NCBI RefSeq assembly: GCF_036507355.1
Contig: NZ_AP027877.1
Source: Escherichia coli
GTDB lineage: Bacteria > Pseudomonadota > Gammaproteobacteria > Enterobacterales > Enterobacteriaceae
DNA: 64,000 nucleotides
Direction: 5' to 3' (one strand)
Shown: positions 54,465 through 62,610 of the stretch, piece by piece
How the letters are laid out: each line of letters begins with the position of its first letter
Position numbering within the stretch: the stretch's first letter is position 1
Program-made: the position numbers and the translations under genes
Notes under the pieces: generated by a model
What the model was told of the DNA's origin: nothing
Database searches by the model: none
The model's input: only the letters and a program-made list of their open reading frames with translations

Positions 54465-55352
54465 ATGCCGCGTTTAACCGCCAAAGATTTCCCACAAGAG
54501 TTGTTGGATTACTACGACTATTACGCTCACGGGAAAATCTCGAAACGTGAGTTCCTCAACCTGGCGGCGAAGTATGCGGTGGGCGGGATGACGGCATTAG
54601 CGTTGTTTGATTTGCTCAAGCCAAATTATGCGCTGGCGACTCAGGTAGAGTTTACCGACCCGGAGATTGTTGCTGAGTACATCACGTATCCTTCGCCAAA
54701 TGGTCACGGCGAGGTACGGGGTTATCTGGTGAAACCCGCAAGGATGAGCGGCAAAACGCCAGCCGTGGTGGTGGTGCATGAGAATCGTGGACTGAATCCG
54801 TATATCGAAGATGTGGCACGGCGAGTGGCGAAGGCGGGGTATATCGCCCTGGCACCTGACGGCTTAAGTTCCGTTGGAGGTTATCCGGGAAATGATGATA
54901 AAGGTCGTGAGCTGCAACAGCAGGTTGATCCAACCAAACTGATGAATGATTTTTTTGCCGCAATTGAGTTTATGCAACGCTATCCGCAAGCGACAGGCAA
55001 AGTGGGTATTACCGGATTTTGCTATGGCGGTGGCGTATCGAACGCGGCGGCTGTCGCGTATCCGGAACTGGCCTGCGCGGTGCCGTTTTATGGTCGTCAG
55101 GCACCCACTGCCGATGTGGCGAAGATTGAAGCGCCTTTACTACTCCACTTCGCGGAACTGGACACCCGAATCAACGAGGGCTGGCCTGCTTACGAGGCGG
55201 CGTTGAAAGCCAATAATAAGGTTTATGAGGCGTATATCTATCCGGGGGTTAATCACGGATTCCATAATGATTCCACGCCCCGTTATGACAAATCTGCCGC
55301 CGATCTTGCCTGGCAAAGGACACTGAAATGGTTCGATAAATATCTCTCCTGA
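54465..55352 (+). CDS. yghX: Dienelactone hydrolase family protein, intact
   Basis: ORF 54420..55352; start at ATG 54465 behind GAGGAG RBS; GFCYGG nucleophile motif; putative signal region SKREFLNLAAKYAVGGMTALALF...ALA. Confidence 0.8.
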   Translation: MPRLTAKDFPQELLDYYDYYAHGKISKREFLNLAAKYAVGGMTALALFDLLKPNYALATQVEFTDPEIVAEYITYPSPNGHGEVRGYLVKPARMSGKTPAVVVVHENRGLNPYIEDVARRVAKAGYIALAPDGLSSVGGYPGNDDKGRELQQQVDPTKLMNDFFAAIEFMQRYPQATGKVGITGFCYGGGVSNAAAVAYPELACAVPFYGRQAPTADVAKIEAPLLLHFAELDTRINEGWPAYEAALKANNKVYEAYIYPGVNHGFHNDSTPRYDKSAADLAWQRTLKWFDKYLS

Positions 55353-55758: not shown

Positions 55759-55946
55759 TCAAACATACGTATTATCTTGCTTTAATTAATTACACTAATG
55801 CTTCTTCCCTTCGTTTTAGCGCCCCGCCGCAGTATCATGATATCGATAACCATAATAAATGTGTGGTAAATGGCGCATCGATCGCATTATTGATTTTGCG
55901 ATTGAGGCAAAATATATGCCAGGTCTTCGCAACGGAATAACTATAA

Positions 55947-57065
55947 ATGACTGGAGATAACACCCTCATCCATTCTCACGGCATTAACCGTCGTGATTTC
56001 ATGAAGCTTTGTGCAGCATTAGCCGCCACCATGGGGTTAAGTAGCAAAGCCGCTGCAGAGATGGCCGAATCGGTTACTAACCCGCAGCGTCCGCCAGTTA
56101 TCTGGATTGGCGCTCAGGAGTGCACCGGTTGTACGGAATCTCTGCTTCGTGCAACGCATCCAACGGTAGAAAATCTCGTGCTGGAGACTATCTCTCTGGA
56201 ATATCACGAAGTGCTTTCCGCCGCCTTCGGTCATCAGGTCGAAGAGAACAAACATAACGCTCTCGAGAAGTACAAAGGGCAGTATGTGTTAGTGGTGGAT
56301 GGTTCCATCCCATTAAAAGATAACGGTATTTATTGCATGGTTGCCGGTGAGCCGATTGTGGATCACATCCGCAAAGCGGCGGAAGGCGCAGCAGCCATTA
56401 TCGCTATCGGTTCCTGCTCCGCGTGGGGCGGTGTTGCCGCAGCTGGAGTTAACCCAACTGGCGCAGTCAGCCTGCAAGAAGTTCTGCCAGGCAAAACCGT
56501 TATCAATATTCCGGGCTGCCCGCCGAACCCGCACAACTTCCTCGCGACCGTTGCGCACATCATCACTTACGGCAAACCGCCGAAACTGGATGACAAAAAC
56601 CGTCCGACCTTCGCCTATGGCCGTCTGATTCACGAACACTGCGAACGTCGCCCGCACTTCGATGCTGGTCGTTTTGCCAAAGAGTTCGGTGATGAAGGCC
56701 ACCGCGAAGGCTGGTGCCTGTACCACCTCGGCTGTAAAGGGCCAGAAACTTACGGCAACTGCTCAACGCTGCAATTCTGCGATGTTGGCGGTGTGTGGCC
56801 GGTGGCGATTGGTCACCCGTGCTATGGCTGTAACGAAGAAGGTATCGGCTTCCATAAAGGCATCCATCAGCTTGCCAACGTCGAAAATCAGACTCCGCGT
56901 TCACAGAAACCGGATGTTAACGCTAAAGAGGGCGGCAACGTCTCTGCAGGCGCTATTGGTTTGCTCGGCGGTGTGGTTGGGCTGGTTGCCGGTGTCAGCG
57001 TGATGGCGGTGCGTGAACTGGGTCGTCAGCAAAAGAAAGATAACGCTGACTCACGGGGAGAATAA
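55947..57065 (+). CDS. hybO: Hydrogenase-2 small subunit (Tat signal)
   Basis: 372 aa; twin-arginine signal [16 protein letters not shown]; Fe-S cysteine clusters; C-terminal TM anchor. Confidence 0.95.
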
Positions 57066-57067
57066 CC

Positions 57068-58054
57068 GTGAACAGACGTAATTTTATTAAAGCAGCCTCC
57101 TGCGGGGCATTGCTGACGGGCGCGCTGCCGTCTGTCAGTCATGCGGCTGCTGAAAACCGCCCGCCAATTCCGGGATCGCTGGGGATGTTGTACGACTCGA
57201 CCTTGTGCGTAGGCTGCCAGGCTTGCGTCACCAAGTGTCAGGATATCAACTTCCCTGAACGTAACCCGCAAGGGGAACAGACCTGGTCGAACAACGACAA
57301 ACTGTCGCCGTATACCAATAACATCATTCAGGTGTGGACCAGCGGCACAGGGGTCAACAAAGACCAGGAGGAGAACGGCTACGCGTACATTAAGAAACAG
57401 TGTATGCACTGCGTCGATCCGAACTGTGTCTCTGTGTGCCCGGTCTCTGCACTGAAAAAAGATCCGAAAACCGGCATTGTCCATTACGACAAAGACGTGT
57501 GCACCGGTTGCCGTTACTGCATGGTCGCCTGTCCGTACAACGTGCCGAAGTACGACTACAACAACCCGTTTGGTGCGCTGCATAAGTGCGAGCTGTGCAA
57601 CCAGAAAGGTGTGGAACGTCTCGATAAAGGCGGTCTGCCTGGCTGCGTAGAAGTGTGCCCGGCGGGCGCGGTGATTTTCGGTACGCGTGAAGAGCTGATG
57701 GCGGAGGCGAAAAAACGTCTGGCGCTGAAGCCTGGCAGCGAATACCACTATCCGCGTCAGACGCTGAAATCTGGCGACACTTACCTGCATACGGTGCCGA
57801 AATATTATCCGCATCTGTACGGCGAGAAAGAGGGCGGCGGTACTCAGGTTCTGGTACTGACGGGTGTGCCTTATGAAAATCTCGACCTGCCGAAACTGGA
57901 CGATCTTTCTACCGGTGCGCGTTCCGAAAATATTCAACACACCCTGTATAAAGGCATGATGCTACCACTGGCTGTGCTGGCGGGCTTAACCGTGCTGGTT
58001 CGTCGCAACACCAAAAACGACCATCACGACGGAGGAGACGATCATGAGTCATGA
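57068..58054 (+). CDS. hybA: Hydrogenase-2 4Fe-4S ferredoxin-type subunit
   Basis: 328 aa; several C..C..C...CP ferredoxin motifs. Confidence 0.95.
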
Positions 58055-59222
58055 TCCACAACCGCTGGGCGGCAAAATCATCAGTAAACCGGTCATGATT
58101 TTTGGACCGTTAATCGTCATCTGTATGCTCCTGATTGTGAAGCGTCTGGTGTTCGGTCTGGGCTCTGTCTCCGACCTGAACGGCGGCTTTCCGTGGGGCG
58201 TGTGGATCGCGTTTGACCTGCTGATCGGCACCGGCTTTGCCTGTGGCGGCTGGGCGCTGGCGTGGGCGGTATACGTCTTTAACCGTGGGCAATACCATCC
58301 GCTGGTGCGTCCGGCGCTGTTGGCGAGTCTGTTTGGTTACTCACTGGGTGGCTTGTCGATCACTATCGACGTGGGTCGCTACTGGAACCTGCCGTACTTC
58401 TACATTCCGGGTCACTTCAACGTGAACTCGGTACTGTTCGAGACGGCGGTCTGTATGACCATCTACATCGGCGTGATGGCTCTGGAGTTTGCTCCGGCAC
58501 TGTTTGAACGTCTGGGCTGGAAGGTGTCGCTACAGCGTCTGAACAAGGTGATGTTCTTCATCATCGCGCTCGGTGCGCTGCTGCCGACCATGCACCAGTC
58601 TTCAATGGGGTCGCTGATGATCTCGGCGGGCTACAAGGTGCATCCGCTGTGGCAGAGCTATGAAATGTTGCCGCTGTTCTCGCTGCTGACGGCGTTCATC
58701 ATGGGCTTCTCGATTGTCATCTTTGAAGGTTCACTGGTGCAGGCGGGTCTGCGTGGCAACGGTCCGGATGAAAAGAGCCTGTTCGTCAAGCTGACCAACA
58801 CCATCAGTGTGTTGCTGGCGATTTTCATCGTGCTGCGCTTTGGCGAGCTTATCTATCGCGACAAGCTGTCGTTAGCGTTTGCCGGTGACTTCTACTCCGT
58901 GATGTTCTGGATTGAAGTCCTGCTGATGCTCTTCCCGCTGGTCGTTCTGCGTGTGGCGAAGCTGCGTAATGATTCCCGCATGCTGTTCCTGTCAGCACTG
59001 AGCGCACTGTTAGGTTGTGCAACCTGGCGTCTGACCTATTCGCTGGTGGCATTCAACCCGGGCGGCGGTTACGCCTACTTCCCGACCTGGGAAGAACTGT
59101 TGATTTCTATTGGTTTTGTGGCTATTGAGATTTGCGCTTACATCGTACTCATTCGTCTACTGCCGATACTTCCTCCTTTAAAACAAAACGATCATAATCG
59201 TCATGAGGCGAGCAAAGCATGA
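58044..59222 (+). CDS. hybB: Hydrogenase-2 integral membrane subunit
   Basis: 392-aa polytopic membrane protein; overlaps hybA by 11 nt. Confidence 0.93.
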
Positions 59223-60922
59223 GCCAGAGAATTACTATTGATCCGGTAACCCGTATTGAGGGGCATTTACGCATCGATTGCGAAATCGAAAATGGCGTCG
59301 TTTCGAAAGCATGGGCTTCCGGTACCATGTGGCGCGGCATGGAAGAGATCGTGAAAAACCGCGATCCGCGCGATGCATGGATGATTGTGCAACGTATCTG
59401 TGGCGTATGTACTACCACTCACGCGCTGTCTTCCGTTCGTGCGGCAGAAAGTGCGCTGAATATCAACGTTCCGGTTAACGCGCAATACATCCGTAACATC
59501 ATTCTGGCTGCGCACACCACGCATGACCATATCGTTCATTTCTATCAGCTTTCGGCGCTGGACTGGGTGGACATCACTTCTGCACTGCAAGCTGACCCAA
59601 CCAAAGCCTCCGAAATGCTGAAAGGCGTTTCGACCTGGCATCTGAACAGTCCGGAAGAGTTCACTAAAGTTCAGAACAAGATCAAAGATCTGGTTGCCAG
59701 CGGTCAGTTGGGTATTTTCGCCAATGGCTACTGGGGTCACCCGGCGATGAAACTGCCGCCGGAAGTGAACCTGATTGCGGTAGCGCACTACCTGCAGGCG
59801 CTGGAGTGCCAGCGTGACGCTAACCGCGTCGTGGCGCTGCTGGGCGGTAAAACGCCGCACATTCAGAACCTGGCGGTAGGTGGTGTCGCGAACCCGATCA
59901 ACCTCGACGGTTTGGGCGTGCTGAACCTTGAGCGCCTGATGTACATCAAGTCTTTCATCGACAAGCTGAGCGACTTTGTTGAACAGGTTTATAAGGTTGA
60001 TACCGCAGTTATTGCCGCGTTCTACCCGGAATGGCTGACGCGCGGTAAAGGTGCGGTGAACTACCTGAGCGTGCCGGAATTCCCGACCGACAGTAAAAAC
60101 GGCAGCTTCCTGTTCCCGGGCGGCTACATTGAGAATGCGGATCTGTCCTCGTATCGTCCGATCACTTCTCATTCCGATGAATACCTGATCAAAGGCATTC
60201 AGGAAAGCGCGAAGCACTCCTGGTATAAAGACGAAGCGCCGCAGGCACCGTGGGAAGGTACCACCATTCCGGCTTATGATGGTTGGTCTGACGACGGGAA
60301 ATATTCCTGGGTGAAATCACCGACTTTCTACGGCAAAACGGTAGAAGTGGGTCCGCTGGCTAATATGCTGGTGAAACTGGCGGCAGGTCGCGAATCTACC
60401 CAGAACAAACTGAATGAAATCGTTGCGATTTATCAGAAACTGACTGGTAACACGCTGGAAGTGGAGCAACTGCACTCTACGCTGGGCCGTATTATTGGTC
60501 GTACCGTTCACTGCTGTGAATTGCAGGATATCCTGCAAAACCAATACAGTGCACTGATCACCAATATCGGCAAAGGCGATCACACCACCTTTGTGAAGCC
60601 GAACATTCCGGCAACGGGTGAGTTCAAAGGTGTTGGCTTCCTCGAAGCGCCGCGCGGTATGCTCTCTCACTGGATGGTTATTAAAGACGGTATCATCAGC
60701 AACTACCAGGCGGTTGTTCCATCAACCTGGAACTCTGGTCCGCGTAACTTCAATGATGACGTCGGTCCTTACGAGCAGTCGCTGGTGGGTACACCGGTTG
60801 CCGATCCGAATAAACCGCTGGAAGTGGTGCGTACCATTCACTCCTTCGACCCGTGCATGGCCTGTGCGGTACACGTAGTGGATGCTGACGGCAACGAAGT
60901 GGTTTCAGTGAAGGTTCTGTAA
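59219..60922 (+). CDS. hybC: Hydrogenase-2 large subunit [NiFe]
   Basis: 567 aa; N-terminal RIEGH...CGVC and C-terminal DPCMACAVH Ni-binding motifs. Confidence 0.96.
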   Translation: MSQRITIDPVTRIEGHLRIDCEIENGVVSKAWASGTMWRGMEEIVKNRDPRDAWMIVQRICGVCTTTHALSSVRAAESALNINVPVNAQYIRNIILAAHTTHDHIVHFYQLSALDWVDITSALQADPTKASEMLKGVSTWHLNSPEEFTKVQNKIKDLVASGQLGIFANGYWGHPAMKLPPEVNLIAVAHYLQALECQRDANRVVALLGGKTPHIQNLAVGGVANPINLDGLGVLNLERLMYIKSFIDKLSDFVEQVYKVDTAVIAAFYPEWLTRGKGAVNYLSVPEFPTDSKNGSFLFPGGYIENADLSSYRPITSHSDEYLIKGIQESAKHSWYKDEAPQAPWEGTTIPAYDGWSDDGKYSWVKSPTFYGKTVEVGPLANMLVKLAAGRESTQNKLNEIVAIYQKLTGNTLEVEQLHSTLGRIIGRTVHCCELQDILQNQYSALITNIGKGDHTTFVKPNIPATGEFKGVGFLEAPRGMLSHWMVIKDGIISNYQAVVPSTWNSGPRNFNDDVGPYEQSLVGTPVADPNKPLEVVRTIHSFDPCMACAVHVVDADGNEVVSVKVL

Positions 60923-61416
60923 TGCGTATTTTAGTCTTAGGGGTCGGCAATATTTTGCTGACCGATGAAGCCATCGGTGTGCGGATTGTCGAAGCGTTAG
61001 AGCAACGATACATTCTGCCGGATTATGTTGAGATCCTCGATGGCGGCACGGCGGGAATGGAGCTGCTTGGCGACATGGCAAATCGCGATCATCTGATTAT
61101 TGCGGATGCCATTGTGTCGAAGAAGAGCGCGCCGGGAACGATGATGATCCTGCGGGATGAAGAAGTTCCGGCGTTGTTTACCAACAAAATCTCTCCGCAT
61201 CAGCTTGGCCTGGCCGACGTCTTGTCGGCCCTGCGCTTCACCGGCGAGTTTCCGAAAAAGCTGACCCTGGTCGGCGTAATTCCGGAATCGCTGGAGCCAC
61301 ACATCGGCTTAACGCCGACGGTTGAAGCAATGATTGAACCTGCGCTTGAGCAGGTTCTGGCTGCGCTGCGCGAATCAGGCGTGGAAGCCATCCCACGGGA
61401 GGAAGCTCATGACTGA
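60922..61416 (+). CDS. hybD: Hydrogenase-2 maturation endopeptidase
   Basis: 164 aa, MRILVLGVGNILLTDEAIG. Confidence 0.93.
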   Translation: MRILVLGVGNILLTDEAIGVRIVEALEQRYILPDYVEILDGGTAGMELLGDMANRDHLIIADAIVSKKSAPGTMMILRDEEVPALFTNKISPHQLGLADVLSALRFTGEFPKKLTLVGVIPESLEPHIGLTPTVEAMIEPALEQVLAALRESGVEAIPREEAHD

Positions 61417-61897
61417 AGAGATAGCAGGCTTCCAGACCTCCCCGAAGGCGCAAGTACAGGCAGCATTTGAAGAAATTGCCCGGCGTTCGATGCACGATCT
61501 CTCTTTTCTGCATCCTTCAATGCCGGTGTATGTTTCTGATTTTACGCTGTTCGAAGGTCAGTGGACGGGGTGTGTGATCACCCCGTGGATGCTGAGTGCG
61601 GTTATCTTCCCCGGCCCGGATCAACTCTGGCCGCTGCGCAAAGTGAGTGAAAAAATTGGTCTGCAACTGCCGTATGGCACCATGACCTTTACCGTTGGCG
61701 AACTGGACGGTGTTTCGCAATACCTCTCCTGTTCGCTGATGTCACCGCTTTCGCACAGTATGTCGATTGAAGAGGGCCAACGCCTGACGGATGACTGCGC
61801 ACGAATGATCCTTTCACTGCCAGTCACGAATCCGGATGTACCACACGCAGGGCGTCGCGCCCTGCTGTTTGGTCGCAGGAGTGGCGAAAATGCATGA
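61409..61897 (+). CDS. hybE: Hydrogenase-2 operon chaperone HybE
   Basis: ORF 61334..61897; start at ATG 61409 (MTEEIAGFQ..., 162 aa), overlapping the hybD stop. Confidence 0.88.
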   Translation: MTEEIAGFQTSPKAQVQAAFEEIARRSMHDLSFLHPSMPVYVSDFTLFEGQWTGCVITPWMLSAVIFPGPDQLWPLRKVSEKIGLQLPYGTMTFTVGELDGVSQYLSCSLMSPLSHSMSIEEGQRLTDDCARMILSLPVTNPDVPHAGRRALLFGRRSGENA

Positions 61898-62231
61898 GTT
61901 GTCGCTTTGCCAGAGTGCCGTTGAAATTATCCAACGGCAGGCGGAGCAGCACGATGTTAAGCGCGTCACCGCCGTGTGGCTGGAAATTGGCGCGCTCTCC
62001 TGCGTTGAGGAGAGCGCCGTCCGTTTTAGTTTTGAAATTGTCTGCCACGGAACGGTGGCGCAAGGGTGCGATTTACATATCGTCTATAAACCCGCCCAGG
62101 CCTGGTGCTGGGATTGCAGCCAGGTGGTGGAGATTCATCAGCACGATGCGCAGTGTCCGCTCTGTCACGGCGAGCGGTTGCGTGTCGATACCGGCGATTC
62201 GCTGATCGTCAAAAGTATTGAAGTTGAATAA
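61890..62231 (+). CDS. hybF: Hydrogenase nickel-incorporation protein (HypA paralog)
   Basis: ORF 61836..62231; start at ATG 61890 (MHELSLCQSAVEII..., 113 aa); CxxC...CPLCHG zinc motif. Confidence 0.9.
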   Translation: MHELSLCQSAVEIIQRQAEQHDVKRVTAVWLEIGALSCVEESAVRFSFEIVCHGTVAQGCDLHIVYKPAQAWCWDCSQVVEIHQHDAQCPLCHGERLRVDTGDSLIVKSIEVE

Positions 62232-62243
62232 CCGGAGTTAACA

Positions 62244-62492
62244 ATGTGTATTGGCGTTCCAGGCCAGGTGCTGGCTGTCGGTGAAGATATTCACCAGCTT
62301 GCGCAGGTTGAAGTATGTGGTATCAAGCGCGACGTGAATATCGCCCTGATTTGTGAAGGTAACCCTGCCGATCTACTGGGCCAGTGGGTGCTGGTACACG
62401 TCGGATTTGCCATGAGCATCATCGACGAAGATGAAGCCAAAGCCACATTAGACGCACTGCGCCAAATGGATTACGACATTACCAGCGCGTGA
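62244..62492 (+). CDS. hybG: Hydrogenase maturation chaperone (HypC paralog)
   Basis: 82 aa beginning MCIGVPGQV. Confidence 0.92.
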
Positions 62493-62499
62493 TGATTAG

Positions 62500-62610
62500 C
62501 TTTCGTAGGTCTGATAAGACGCGGCAGCGTCGCATCAGGCATTGTGCTCGATTGCCGGATGCGGCGTGAACGCCTTATCCGGCCTGGATGGCTTGCTGCG
62601 ACGAACGCTA
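62500..62610. repeat. REP element(s) between hybG and yghU
   Basis: gtaggtctgataagacgcggcagcgtcgcatcaggc and gccggatgcggcgtgaacgccttatccggcc palindromic units. Confidence 0.75.

Follow-up and report, generated by a model that had tools for sequence, protein, structure and literature searches.

Translational coupling of neighbouring genes has been described for the pairs trpBA, atpHA, menDH and astDB, to which termination-reinitiation or RNA-unfolding models are applied. Like these pairs, the genes of the hydrogenase-2 operon hyb are co-directional, are spaced in or near the range of -8 to +6 nt (negative values denote overlaps, positive values gaps), carry the Shine-Dalgarno sequence (SD) inside the upstream gene and encode products that belong to a heteromeric complex or are interacting partners, whereas for hyb we infer coupling. 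It was shown that short overlaps are 4.5-fold enriched among the subunits of heteromeric complexes (PMC10666635), and overlaps of -8 and -11 nt were reported to couple less efficiently than spacings of -4 to +3 nt (review PMC12548453).

Close systems for comparison are the paralogous hydrogenase operons hya, hyc, hyp and hyf of E. coli. The junctions of hya (-4, +18, -4, -4, -4), hyc (-4, +2, +17, +9, -1, -4, -8) and hyp (+3, -10, -1, -4) belong to the same overlap classes as those of hyb. In hyf, the junctions run -1 ... -11, +9, -4, -8, and its pair hyfHI (-4) is among the four coupled pairs out of five native E. coli pairs with a 4-nt overlap that were tested (PMC6728339). Compared with these four operons, hyb has the longest unbroken run, with five overlaps in a row, or six consecutive junctions no wider than +2, and it has three longer overlaps (-8, -8 and -11).

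The hyb Operon

The window analyzed here, a stretch of 64,000 nt of E. coli DNA, contains the canonical hydrogenase-2 operon hybOABCDEFG at positions 55947–62492 of the plus strand. All hyb genes are co-directional, every gene length is divisible by three and each gene ends with one terminal stop codon, as determined by a script run on the window. The first cistron, hybO (55947–57065), encodes the hydrogenase-2 small subunit of 372 aa (PF01058 and PF14720). It is followed by hybA (57068–58054) for an Fe-S protein of 328 aa, the N-terminus of which, MNRRNFIK, is a twin-arginine signal; the Tat signal of HybA is also stated in the literature (PMC5902676). The genes hybB (58044–59222) and hybC (59219–60922) encode the NrfD-type membrane subunit of 392 aa and the large subunit of 567 aa, respectively, and residues 2–552 of HybC are visible in its crystal structure (PMC5902676). 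The HybC-specific maturation endopeptidase HybD (164 aa) is encoded at 60922–61416, and the chains of PDB entries 1cfz and 2kml begin at its MRILVLG. The remaining genes encode the Hyd-2 assembly chaperone HybE (61409–61897, 162 aa), the HypA-type nickel metallochaperone HybF (61890–62231, 113 aa) and the HypC-type chaperone HybG (62244–62492, 82 aa). In the order hybO-A-B-C-D-E-F-G, the eight products matched the Pfam families for the small subunit, a 4Fe-4S protein, the NrfD-type membrane subunit, the NiFe large subunit, the HycI-type protease, HybE, HypA and HypC. The annotation of matching E. coli records agreed with these identities, and the gene names proposed in the initial annotation were borne out by curated annotation.

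The operon was found in 5,418 of 5,426 genomes. Compared with complete E. coli genomes, the region is 99.4% identical, and over 6.6 kb none of these genomes comes closer to the strain than a difference of 0.6%. K-12 possesses the same eight genes (b2997–b2990, RefSeq) with the same order, lengths and junctions (+2, -11, -4, -1, -8, -8, +12). HybO, HybB, HybE, HybF and HybG of both strains are 100% identical, while 98–99.7% identity was obtained for HybC, HybD and, leaving aside the first residue encoded by GTG, HybA. The flanks are also those of K-12 MG1655 and of strain XJ34, with yghW upstream and yghU and gss downstream; the neighbouring gene yghX, a pseudogene in K-12, is intact in this strain.

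It is known that hybOABCDEFG is transcribed as a single long transcript with one lifetime (PMC4332155). Promoter-like and terminator-like sites within the operon showed no excess over shuffled sequences, and the number of terminator-like hairpins inside hybE and hybF (11) was not above that of shuffles (7.8 ± 2.8). The RNA fold of positions 61836–61905 was not significant (z = -1.6), and no Rfam family was found within the operon.

Junctions Between the hyb Genes

Between hybO and hybF, no stop codon is farther than 11 nt from the start codon of the next gene. The GTG start codon of hybA follows the hybO stop codon after a gap of 2 nt (+2). The genes hybA and hybB overlap by 11 nt (58044–58054, ATGAGTCATGA), hybB and hybC by the 4 nt ATGA (59219–59222), and hybC and hybD share the single base 60922 within TAATG (60920–60924). 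Two overlaps of 8 nt follow, namely hybD/hybE at 61409–61416 (ATGACTGA) and hybE/hybF at 61890–61897 (ATGCATGA); in the latter, the hybE stop codon TGA lies inside the hybF codons for His2 and Glu3. The gene hybG is separated from hybF by a gap of 12 nt containing the SD GGAG (62234–62237). Thus, the five overlap lengths given in the initial annotation (11, 4, 1, 8 and 8 nt, with ATGA and TAATG) proved exact when recomputed by script. The annotations of K-12 MG1655 (b2990–b2997, RefSeq) and of strain XJ34 (PGAP) give identical gene lengths and overlaps. The overlaps are, hence, the ordinary and already known layout of tightly packed genes; their description has little importance beyond quality control and introduces no new kind of element.

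No stop codon has the form NAT or GNN, so that, for genes starting with ATG, the smallest overlaps are of 1 or 4 nt in one of the two relative frames and of 8 nt in the second. Of the hyb overlaps, four fall into these smallest slots (the first two of one frame, the first of the other), and hybA/hybB falls into a second slot. Of all unidirectional gene pairs in E. coli, only 24% (707 of 2,987) are spaced between -8 and +6 nt (PMC10666635). Based on this figure, on the use of the ATG slots and on the conservation of the geometry across 80 species, the hyb layout is non-random, yet it follows a well-known genome-wide pattern.

Start Sites of hybE and hybF

The list of open reading frames gave longer versions of two genes, hybE from TTG 61334 (187 aa) and hybF from ATG 61836 (131 aa). 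The initial annotation had preferred the shorter forms, starting at ATG 61409 and ATG 61890, and had argued that the overlaps fix these starts. The starts themselves stand, but the argument is circular: only once a start has been chosen is the overlap defined. Judged by sequence evidence independent of the overlaps, 61409 and 61890 are the correct starts: they match the curated annotation, the SD strengths, the HypA-type MHE N-terminus, the distribution of in-frame stop codons and the substitution pattern.

Alternatively, the longer frames might be used, either for the main products or for N-terminally extended isoforms. Both are open in the window, and some close relatives also have the ATG at position -54 of the hybF frame. 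However, the long hybE frame was closed by an in-frame stop codon in 43 of 83 related loci, with 27 loci lacking an upstream in-frame start, and the long hybF frame in 30 of 72, with 24 lacking such a start. Moreover, no SD is present at the long starts (-2.8 kcal/mol at 61334 and +0.1 kcal/mol at 61836). The pattern of wobble-position substitutions switches frame at each junction, and upstream of the short starts substitutions hit the third codon position of the upstream gene, which would correspond to second positions if the extension were translated. The stretch from -75 to -22 upstream of hybE evolves in the hybD frame only.

At the protein level, 16 HybE homologues from Enterobacterales start at most one residue from the aligned Met, with P0060 being 5 residues longer. 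The HybE Pfam profile begins 11 residues into the short form and cannot alone decide the start; hence, for hybE the decision was made by the comparative DNA tests (in-frame stop codons and substitution pattern). For hybF, position 1 of the Pfam HypA profile matched residue 19 in the translated long ORF, i.e., the MHE start, and the HypA chains of PDB entries 3a43 and 6g81 start at MHE in alignment with the HybF start. In the HypA family, the N-terminal amine and His2 of MHE bind Ni(II) (PMC7055735). ATG 61890 encodes MHE as HypA/HybF nickel metallochaperones require, whereas the extension would bury the Met1 amine and the MHE nickel site, which is essential in this family. Use of the longer frames is, therefore, highly improbable and close to refuted. 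Calling ORFs from the first start after a stop over-extended hybE by 25 and hybF by 18 codons, and the curated starts are right. No Hyb protein was among the entries of the TRAINSPOTTER N-terminomics supplements, probably because the operon is expressed anaerobically.

The 8-nt overlaps place the downstream gene in the +1 relative frame, and it was considered whether they serve programmed frameshifting that yields HybD-HybE or HybE-HybF fusions. Predicted fusion proteins of both kinds are present in public assemblies. However, only one 1.3-kb contig, derived from one sample, carried the HybE-HybF fusion, which arose there because the A4 run preceding the ATG had lost 1 nt. The '101-member' cluster of the fusion was a mixture of ordinary fragments, and fusion would deprive HybF of its free N-terminus. 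We consider programmed frameshifting exceedingly improbable. The fusions were also rejected as a population variant, since they were traced to this one contig with its 1-nt deletion and to the heterogeneous cluster.

Shine-Dalgarno Sequences and Accessibility of Initiation Regions

From hybA to hybF, the SD motif of each downstream start is embedded in the 3' end of the upstream gene. The motifs of hybA (GGGGAG at 57055–57060, -8.1 kcal/mol), hybB (GGAGGAG at 58031–58037 within hybA, -9.5 kcal/mol), hybE (GGGAGG at 61397–61402, -10.3 kcal/mol) and hybF (AGGAG at 61877–61881, -7.0 kcal/mol) are all in the top 2% of the start-like triplets of the operon. The SD-like GAGG of hybC (59205–59208, -5.6 kcal/mol) is moderate, and the AAGG of hybD (60911–60914, -3.5 kcal/mol) is weak and no better than background. 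Averaged across species, SD strength was -5.5 kcal/mol at the -1 and -4 junctions, -8.5 kcal/mol at the +2 junction and -8.2 kcal/mol at the -8 and -11 junctions. Strong SDs at four junctions would equally permit independent initiation, an observation that speaks against coupling.

The hyb genes could, then, be compacted without being coupled: each cistron would be initiated independently at its own SD, and the overlaps would be a neutral by-product of stop-codon drift and packing. The strong SDs upstream of hybA, hybB, hybE and hybF fit this explanation, and so does bioBF, the one of the five tested E. coli pairs with a 4-nt overlap that was initiated de novo (PMC6728339). On the other hand, the other four native pairs tested in that study were coupled, and the predicted accessibility of the initiation regions differs between hybO and the internal genes. 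When naked RNA was folded in silico, opening positions -18 to +5 of hybO was predicted to cost 3.85 kcal/mol, which is in the 1st percentile of the operon. Across 29 species, hybO was at the median 4th percentile and below the 25th percentile in 26 of 29. The internal starts were at median 22nd–62nd percentiles and, by prediction, did not exceed random coding sequence in openness. Consistently over these species, hybO is the only hyb gene with a predicted open initiation region, which argues against independent initiation of the internal cistrons.

Conservation of the Junctions

The junctions were compared in 80 species representatives, reaching down to about 48% HybE identity. The -1 junction of hybC/hybD (TAATG or TGATG) was present in 79 of 79 loci, the -4 overlap of hybB/hybC in 71 of 76, the +2 gap of hybO/hybA in 70 of 76 and the -8 overlap of hybE/hybF in 65 of 72, and the GTG start of hybA was kept in all 72 loci. 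The motif ATGCATGAR was found at hybE/hybF in 64 of 65 loci (CAT GAR for His2-Glu3, with MHE kept).

Two junctions were variable. While hybA and hybB overlapped in 75 of 76 related loci, the length was -8, -11, -14 or -17 nt. The hybD/hybE spacing ranged from -17 to +26 nt, with -8 in 50 of 83 loci, -11 in 11 of 83 and short gaps in distant genera. Since the hybA/hybB length and the hybD/hybE spacing drift among genera, the exact overlap lengths are not all under selection. That the downstream start stays put at both junctions while the spacing changes is in line with compaction alone. Synonymous-site conservation may fit it as well: in the region from -20 to -1 of the junctions it was raised only at hybO/hybA (0.75 vs. 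0.51), and without a general rise only the SD core columns stood out elsewhere. However, compaction alone does not readily account for the near-constant hybB/hybC and hybO/hybA spacings, nor for the invariant -1 junction of hybC/hybD despite a background-level SD. The combination of such an SD with an invariant TAATG or TGATG at hybD is as termination-reinitiation predicts. Taken with the predicted accessibility, compaction without coupling appears rather unlikely.

Probable Coupling Along the Operon

For the junctions of this canonical operon, translational coupling is the most likely function, and we regard it as probable. The initial annotation had called the overlaps consistent with translational coupling, a fair statement that fits the conserved geometry, the embedded SDs and the prediction that the initiation region is open at hybO but not at the internal genes. 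A survey of the searchable literature returned no experiment on hyb coupling. Regarding spacing, +2, -4, -1, -8 and -8 are inside the range of efficient coupling (about -8 to +6, best -4 to +3), and hybA/hybB at -11 is just outside.

In the mechanism that we infer, de novo ribosome loading would occur mainly at the open initiation region of hybO, and a ribosome ending one cistron would reinitiate at the adjacent start. Alternatively, the terminating ribosome may unfold the mRNA locally and thereby give a new 30S subunit access to the embedded SD. Coupling of either kind would tie the output of the structural subunits HybO, HybA, HybB and HybC to that of the maturation factors HybD, HybE and HybF.

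A more detailed and tentative scheme is graded coupling, in which overlap length and SD strength would be set jointly at each junction. The -1 and -4 junctions with weak SDs would then operate by pure reinitiation and the +2 and -8/-11 junctions with strong SDs, together setting the proportion between structural subunits and maturation factors, and the hybE stop codon would be locked in the invariant hybF codons for His2-Glu3. The run of overlapping hyb cistrons is a clean and comparatively well-supported example, and it may be suited to testing how the output of enzyme subunits relative to their dedicated maturation factors depends on overlap length together with SD strength. If the graded scheme is true, an essential protein motif, His2-Glu3 of HybF, would fix an overlap. 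The K-12 gene hypA, which has no upstream neighbour, uses CAC where hybF has CAT.

Gene Junctions of the hyb Operon

Eight co-directional genes were delineated at 55947-62492 (plus strand) from the ORF list, the sequence and a coordinate script. The Pfam domains of their products are, in order, NiFe-hydrogenase small subunit, 4Fe-4S protein, NrfD-type membrane subunit, NiFe large subunit, HycI-type protease, HybE, HypA and HypC, which, judged by domain content, is the set expected of a hydrogenase-2 operon. Matching database records label the stretch hybOABCDEFG and place it between yghW at one end and yghU plus gss at the other. By megablast, 5,418 of the 5,426 complete E. coli genomes carry this 6.6-kb stretch, at no more than 99.4% identity over 55900-62500, and the set is without a close representative of the source strain; HybE is 100% identical to that of Escherichia whittamii and Escherichia sp. 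MOD1-EC7003. The dienelactone-hydrolase-like gene yghX (about 54465-55352, plus strand) is uninterrupted here, as it is in strain XJ34, but is annotated as a pseudogene in K-12 MG1655. Directly downstream of hybG, in a REP-like palindromic spacer ahead of yghU, 62508-62584 (minus strand) matches Rfam naRNA4 (RF02564, a REP-derived nucleoid-associated ncRNA; 84.8 bits).

On the plus strand, hybA and hybB overlap by 11 nt (58044-58054), hybB and hybC by ATGA (59219-59222), hybC and hybD at 60922 (TAATG), hybD and hybE at 61409-61416, and hybE and hybF at 61890-61897 (ATGCATGA). Gaps of 2 nt and 12 nt separate hybO/hybA and hybF/hybG, respectively. All five overlaps had been reported in the initial annotation and were reproduced exactly by the coordinate script. 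Since gene lengths and junctions are identical in the curated K-12 and PGAP records, the finding restates standard annotation.

The sequence of an ATG start by itself restricts the possible overlaps: one relative frame allows the upstream stop codon to share 1 or 4 nt with the downstream gene, but NAT and GNN are never stop codons, so that the minimum in the other frame is 8 nt, followed by 11 nt. Therefore, every hyb overlap occupies the first or second available slot. If stops in the upstream frame came at random (3/64 per codon), our crude calculation would place about 9% of junctions in these slots, and all five overlaps with a probability of about 6e-6. Among unidirectional E. coli gene pairs, 24% lie at -8 to +6 (negative values, overlaps; positive values, gaps in nt), and the commonest overlaps rank -4 > -1 > -8 (PMC10666635). 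Thus, the pattern is non-random, yet a known genome-wide phenomenon. The paralogous hydrogenase operons behave likewise: hya (-4, +18, -4, -4, -4), hyc (including -1, -4, -8), hyp (+3, -10, -1, -4) and hyf (including -1, -11, +9, -4, -8). The hyb overlaps were correctly and well read, but are ordinary: they belong to a well-described class and are fully contained in curated annotation.

Start Codons of hybE and hybF

The initial annotation had noted longer ORF calls for hybE (TTG 61334) and hybF (ATG 61836), in agreement with the ORF list, and had taken the overlaps to fix the shorter starts. This argument is circular, but the same starts are backed independently by Shine-Dalgarno (SD) pairing, the family N-terminus, closed frames and substitutions. 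SD pairing was -10.3 kcal/mol at ATG 61409 versus -2.8 at TTG 61334 for hybE, and -7.0 kcal/mol at ATG 61890 versus +0.1 at ATG 61836 for hybF. Position 1 of the Pfam HypA profile falls on the Met of MHE, which is residue 19 in the long hybF ORF, and the HypA chains of structures 3a43 and 6g81 also start at MHE. In the HypA family, nickel is bound through His2 and the N-terminal amine, at a site that changes when one residue is inserted behind Met1 (PMC7055735); an 18-residue extension should therefore destroy this site. The long hybE frame was closed by an in-frame stop in 43 of 83 related loci and lacked an upstream in-frame start codon in a further 27; for hybF, the figures were 30 of 72 and 24.

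Identity by codon position was 0.89/0.53/0.82 at -75 to -22 before hybE (hybE frame) and 0.78/0.39/0.66 at -54 to -22 before hybF. Thus, conservation was lowest at third codon positions of the upstream gene, which would serve as second positions in the hypothetical extension. Past the overlap, the minimum shifts to the third position of the downstream gene, and the same switch was seen at hybA/hybB, hybB/hybC and hybC/hybD. Annotated starts also agree with the aligned Met of Enterobacterales HybE homologues, with HybC residues 2-552 visible in the crystal structure (PMC5902676) and with HybD structures beginning MRILVLG. PDB 2kc5 is the 162-aa HybE form, but its construct follows annotation and is not independent evidence. 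Use of the long starts is thus nearly excluded.

Conservation of the Junctions across Species

Eighty species-representative loci were fetched via HybE alignment (Escherichia, Citrobacter, Salmonella, Trabulsiella, Morganella, Providencia, Budvicia, Kosakonia, Phytobacter, Serratia, Brenneria and Aeromonas), and the eight genes were mapped per locus by tblastn and ORF logic. Exact length was kept at hybC/hybD (-1 in 79/79 loci), hybB/hybC (-4 in 71/76), hybO/hybA (+2 in 70/76) and hybE/hybF (-8 in 65/72, -1 in 5). It drifted at hybA/hybB, overlapping in 75/76 loci by 8, 11, 14 or 17 nt, and at hybD/hybE (-8 in 50/83, -11 in 11, short gaps in distant genera). Closeness of the genes is therefore conserved everywhere. 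The GTG start of hybA was kept in 72/72 loci.

In ten Aeromonas loci (L069, L071, L073, L075-L079, L081 and L082), no hybF homologue adjoining hybE was found; hybD and hybE do not overlap but lie +14 to +26 nt apart, and HybE appears longer at its N-terminus (MAQSHLSE...). Morganellaceae, Budviciaceae and Serratia loci, among them L052, L044 and L070, carry 0.9-1.4 kb between hybF and hybG, encoding a histidine-rich HypB-type GTPase (N-terminal MCSTCGC motif; CobW/HypB/UreG domain). Their order is hybF-hypB-hybG, whereas E. coli hypB lies in the separate hyp operon.

Probable Translational Coupling

Translational coupling is the best-supported, though inferred, reading of the hyb junctions. 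It is favored by the conserved geometry and by SDs of downstream genes embedded in upstream genes. TAATG/TGATG before hybD is invariant though its SD is no better than background, which would be the signature expected of termination-reinitiation. In silico, only hybO, the first cistron, had a low predicted cost of opening -18 to +5 (1st percentile in the window; median 4th over 29 species, below the 25th in 26/29), with medians at the 22nd-62nd percentile for internal starts. The SD of hybO itself (55926-55946) is weak (-3.5 kcal/mol, background level), yet this is the most open predicted initiation region of the operon. The operon acts as one long transcript (PMC4332155), four of five native E. 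coli pairs tested with 4-nt overlaps were coupled, including hyfHI (PMC6728339), and complex subunits are enriched in short overlaps (PMC10666635).

A literature search found no direct experiment on hyb coupling. Overlaps longer than 4 nt reportedly couple less well (PMC12548453), spacing drifts at hybA/hybB and hybD/hybE, and synonymous-site conservation showed no general rise near hyb starts. Strong SDs at four of the junctions could also support independent initiation; combined with neutral compaction of the genes, this is the less probable reading. Mean SD pairing was weaker at -1 and -4 junctions (-5.5 kcal/mol, n=145) than at -8 or longer overlaps (-8.2, n=188) and at +1 to +3 (-8.5, n=81), a lead rather than a result because the samples are phylogenetically non-independent.

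The hybE/hybF Junction

Counts of terminator-like sites did not exceed those of shuffles, and the local fold of 61836-61905 gave z = -1.6. Two GC-rich terminator-like hairpins lie in coding sequence (plus strand), one at the hybE 3' end, 25 nt ahead of the hybF ATG (61847-61865; encoding conserved AGRRALL), the other within hybF (61992-62017).

A programmed frameshift fusion at the hyb overlaps was not supported. The 273-aa HybE-HybF fusion protein P0003 is a singleton from one 1.3-kb contig (L087, Logan ERR4561010), and its cluster is heterogeneous. In that contig, GAAAATG has become GAAATG (equivalent to 61886-61892), a single-A deletion joining hybE and hybF in frame that is probably a sequencing error or rare mutation.

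Of 65 species loci, 64 encode hybF His2 (61890-61898) as CAT, whose T also belongs to the TGA stop of hybE, whereas the codon is CAC in K-12 hypA, which heads its own operon (L085, 11648-11656). This suggests that the synonymous site may be constrained by the overlap, but CAT was also retained in six loci with the hybE stop elsewhere.
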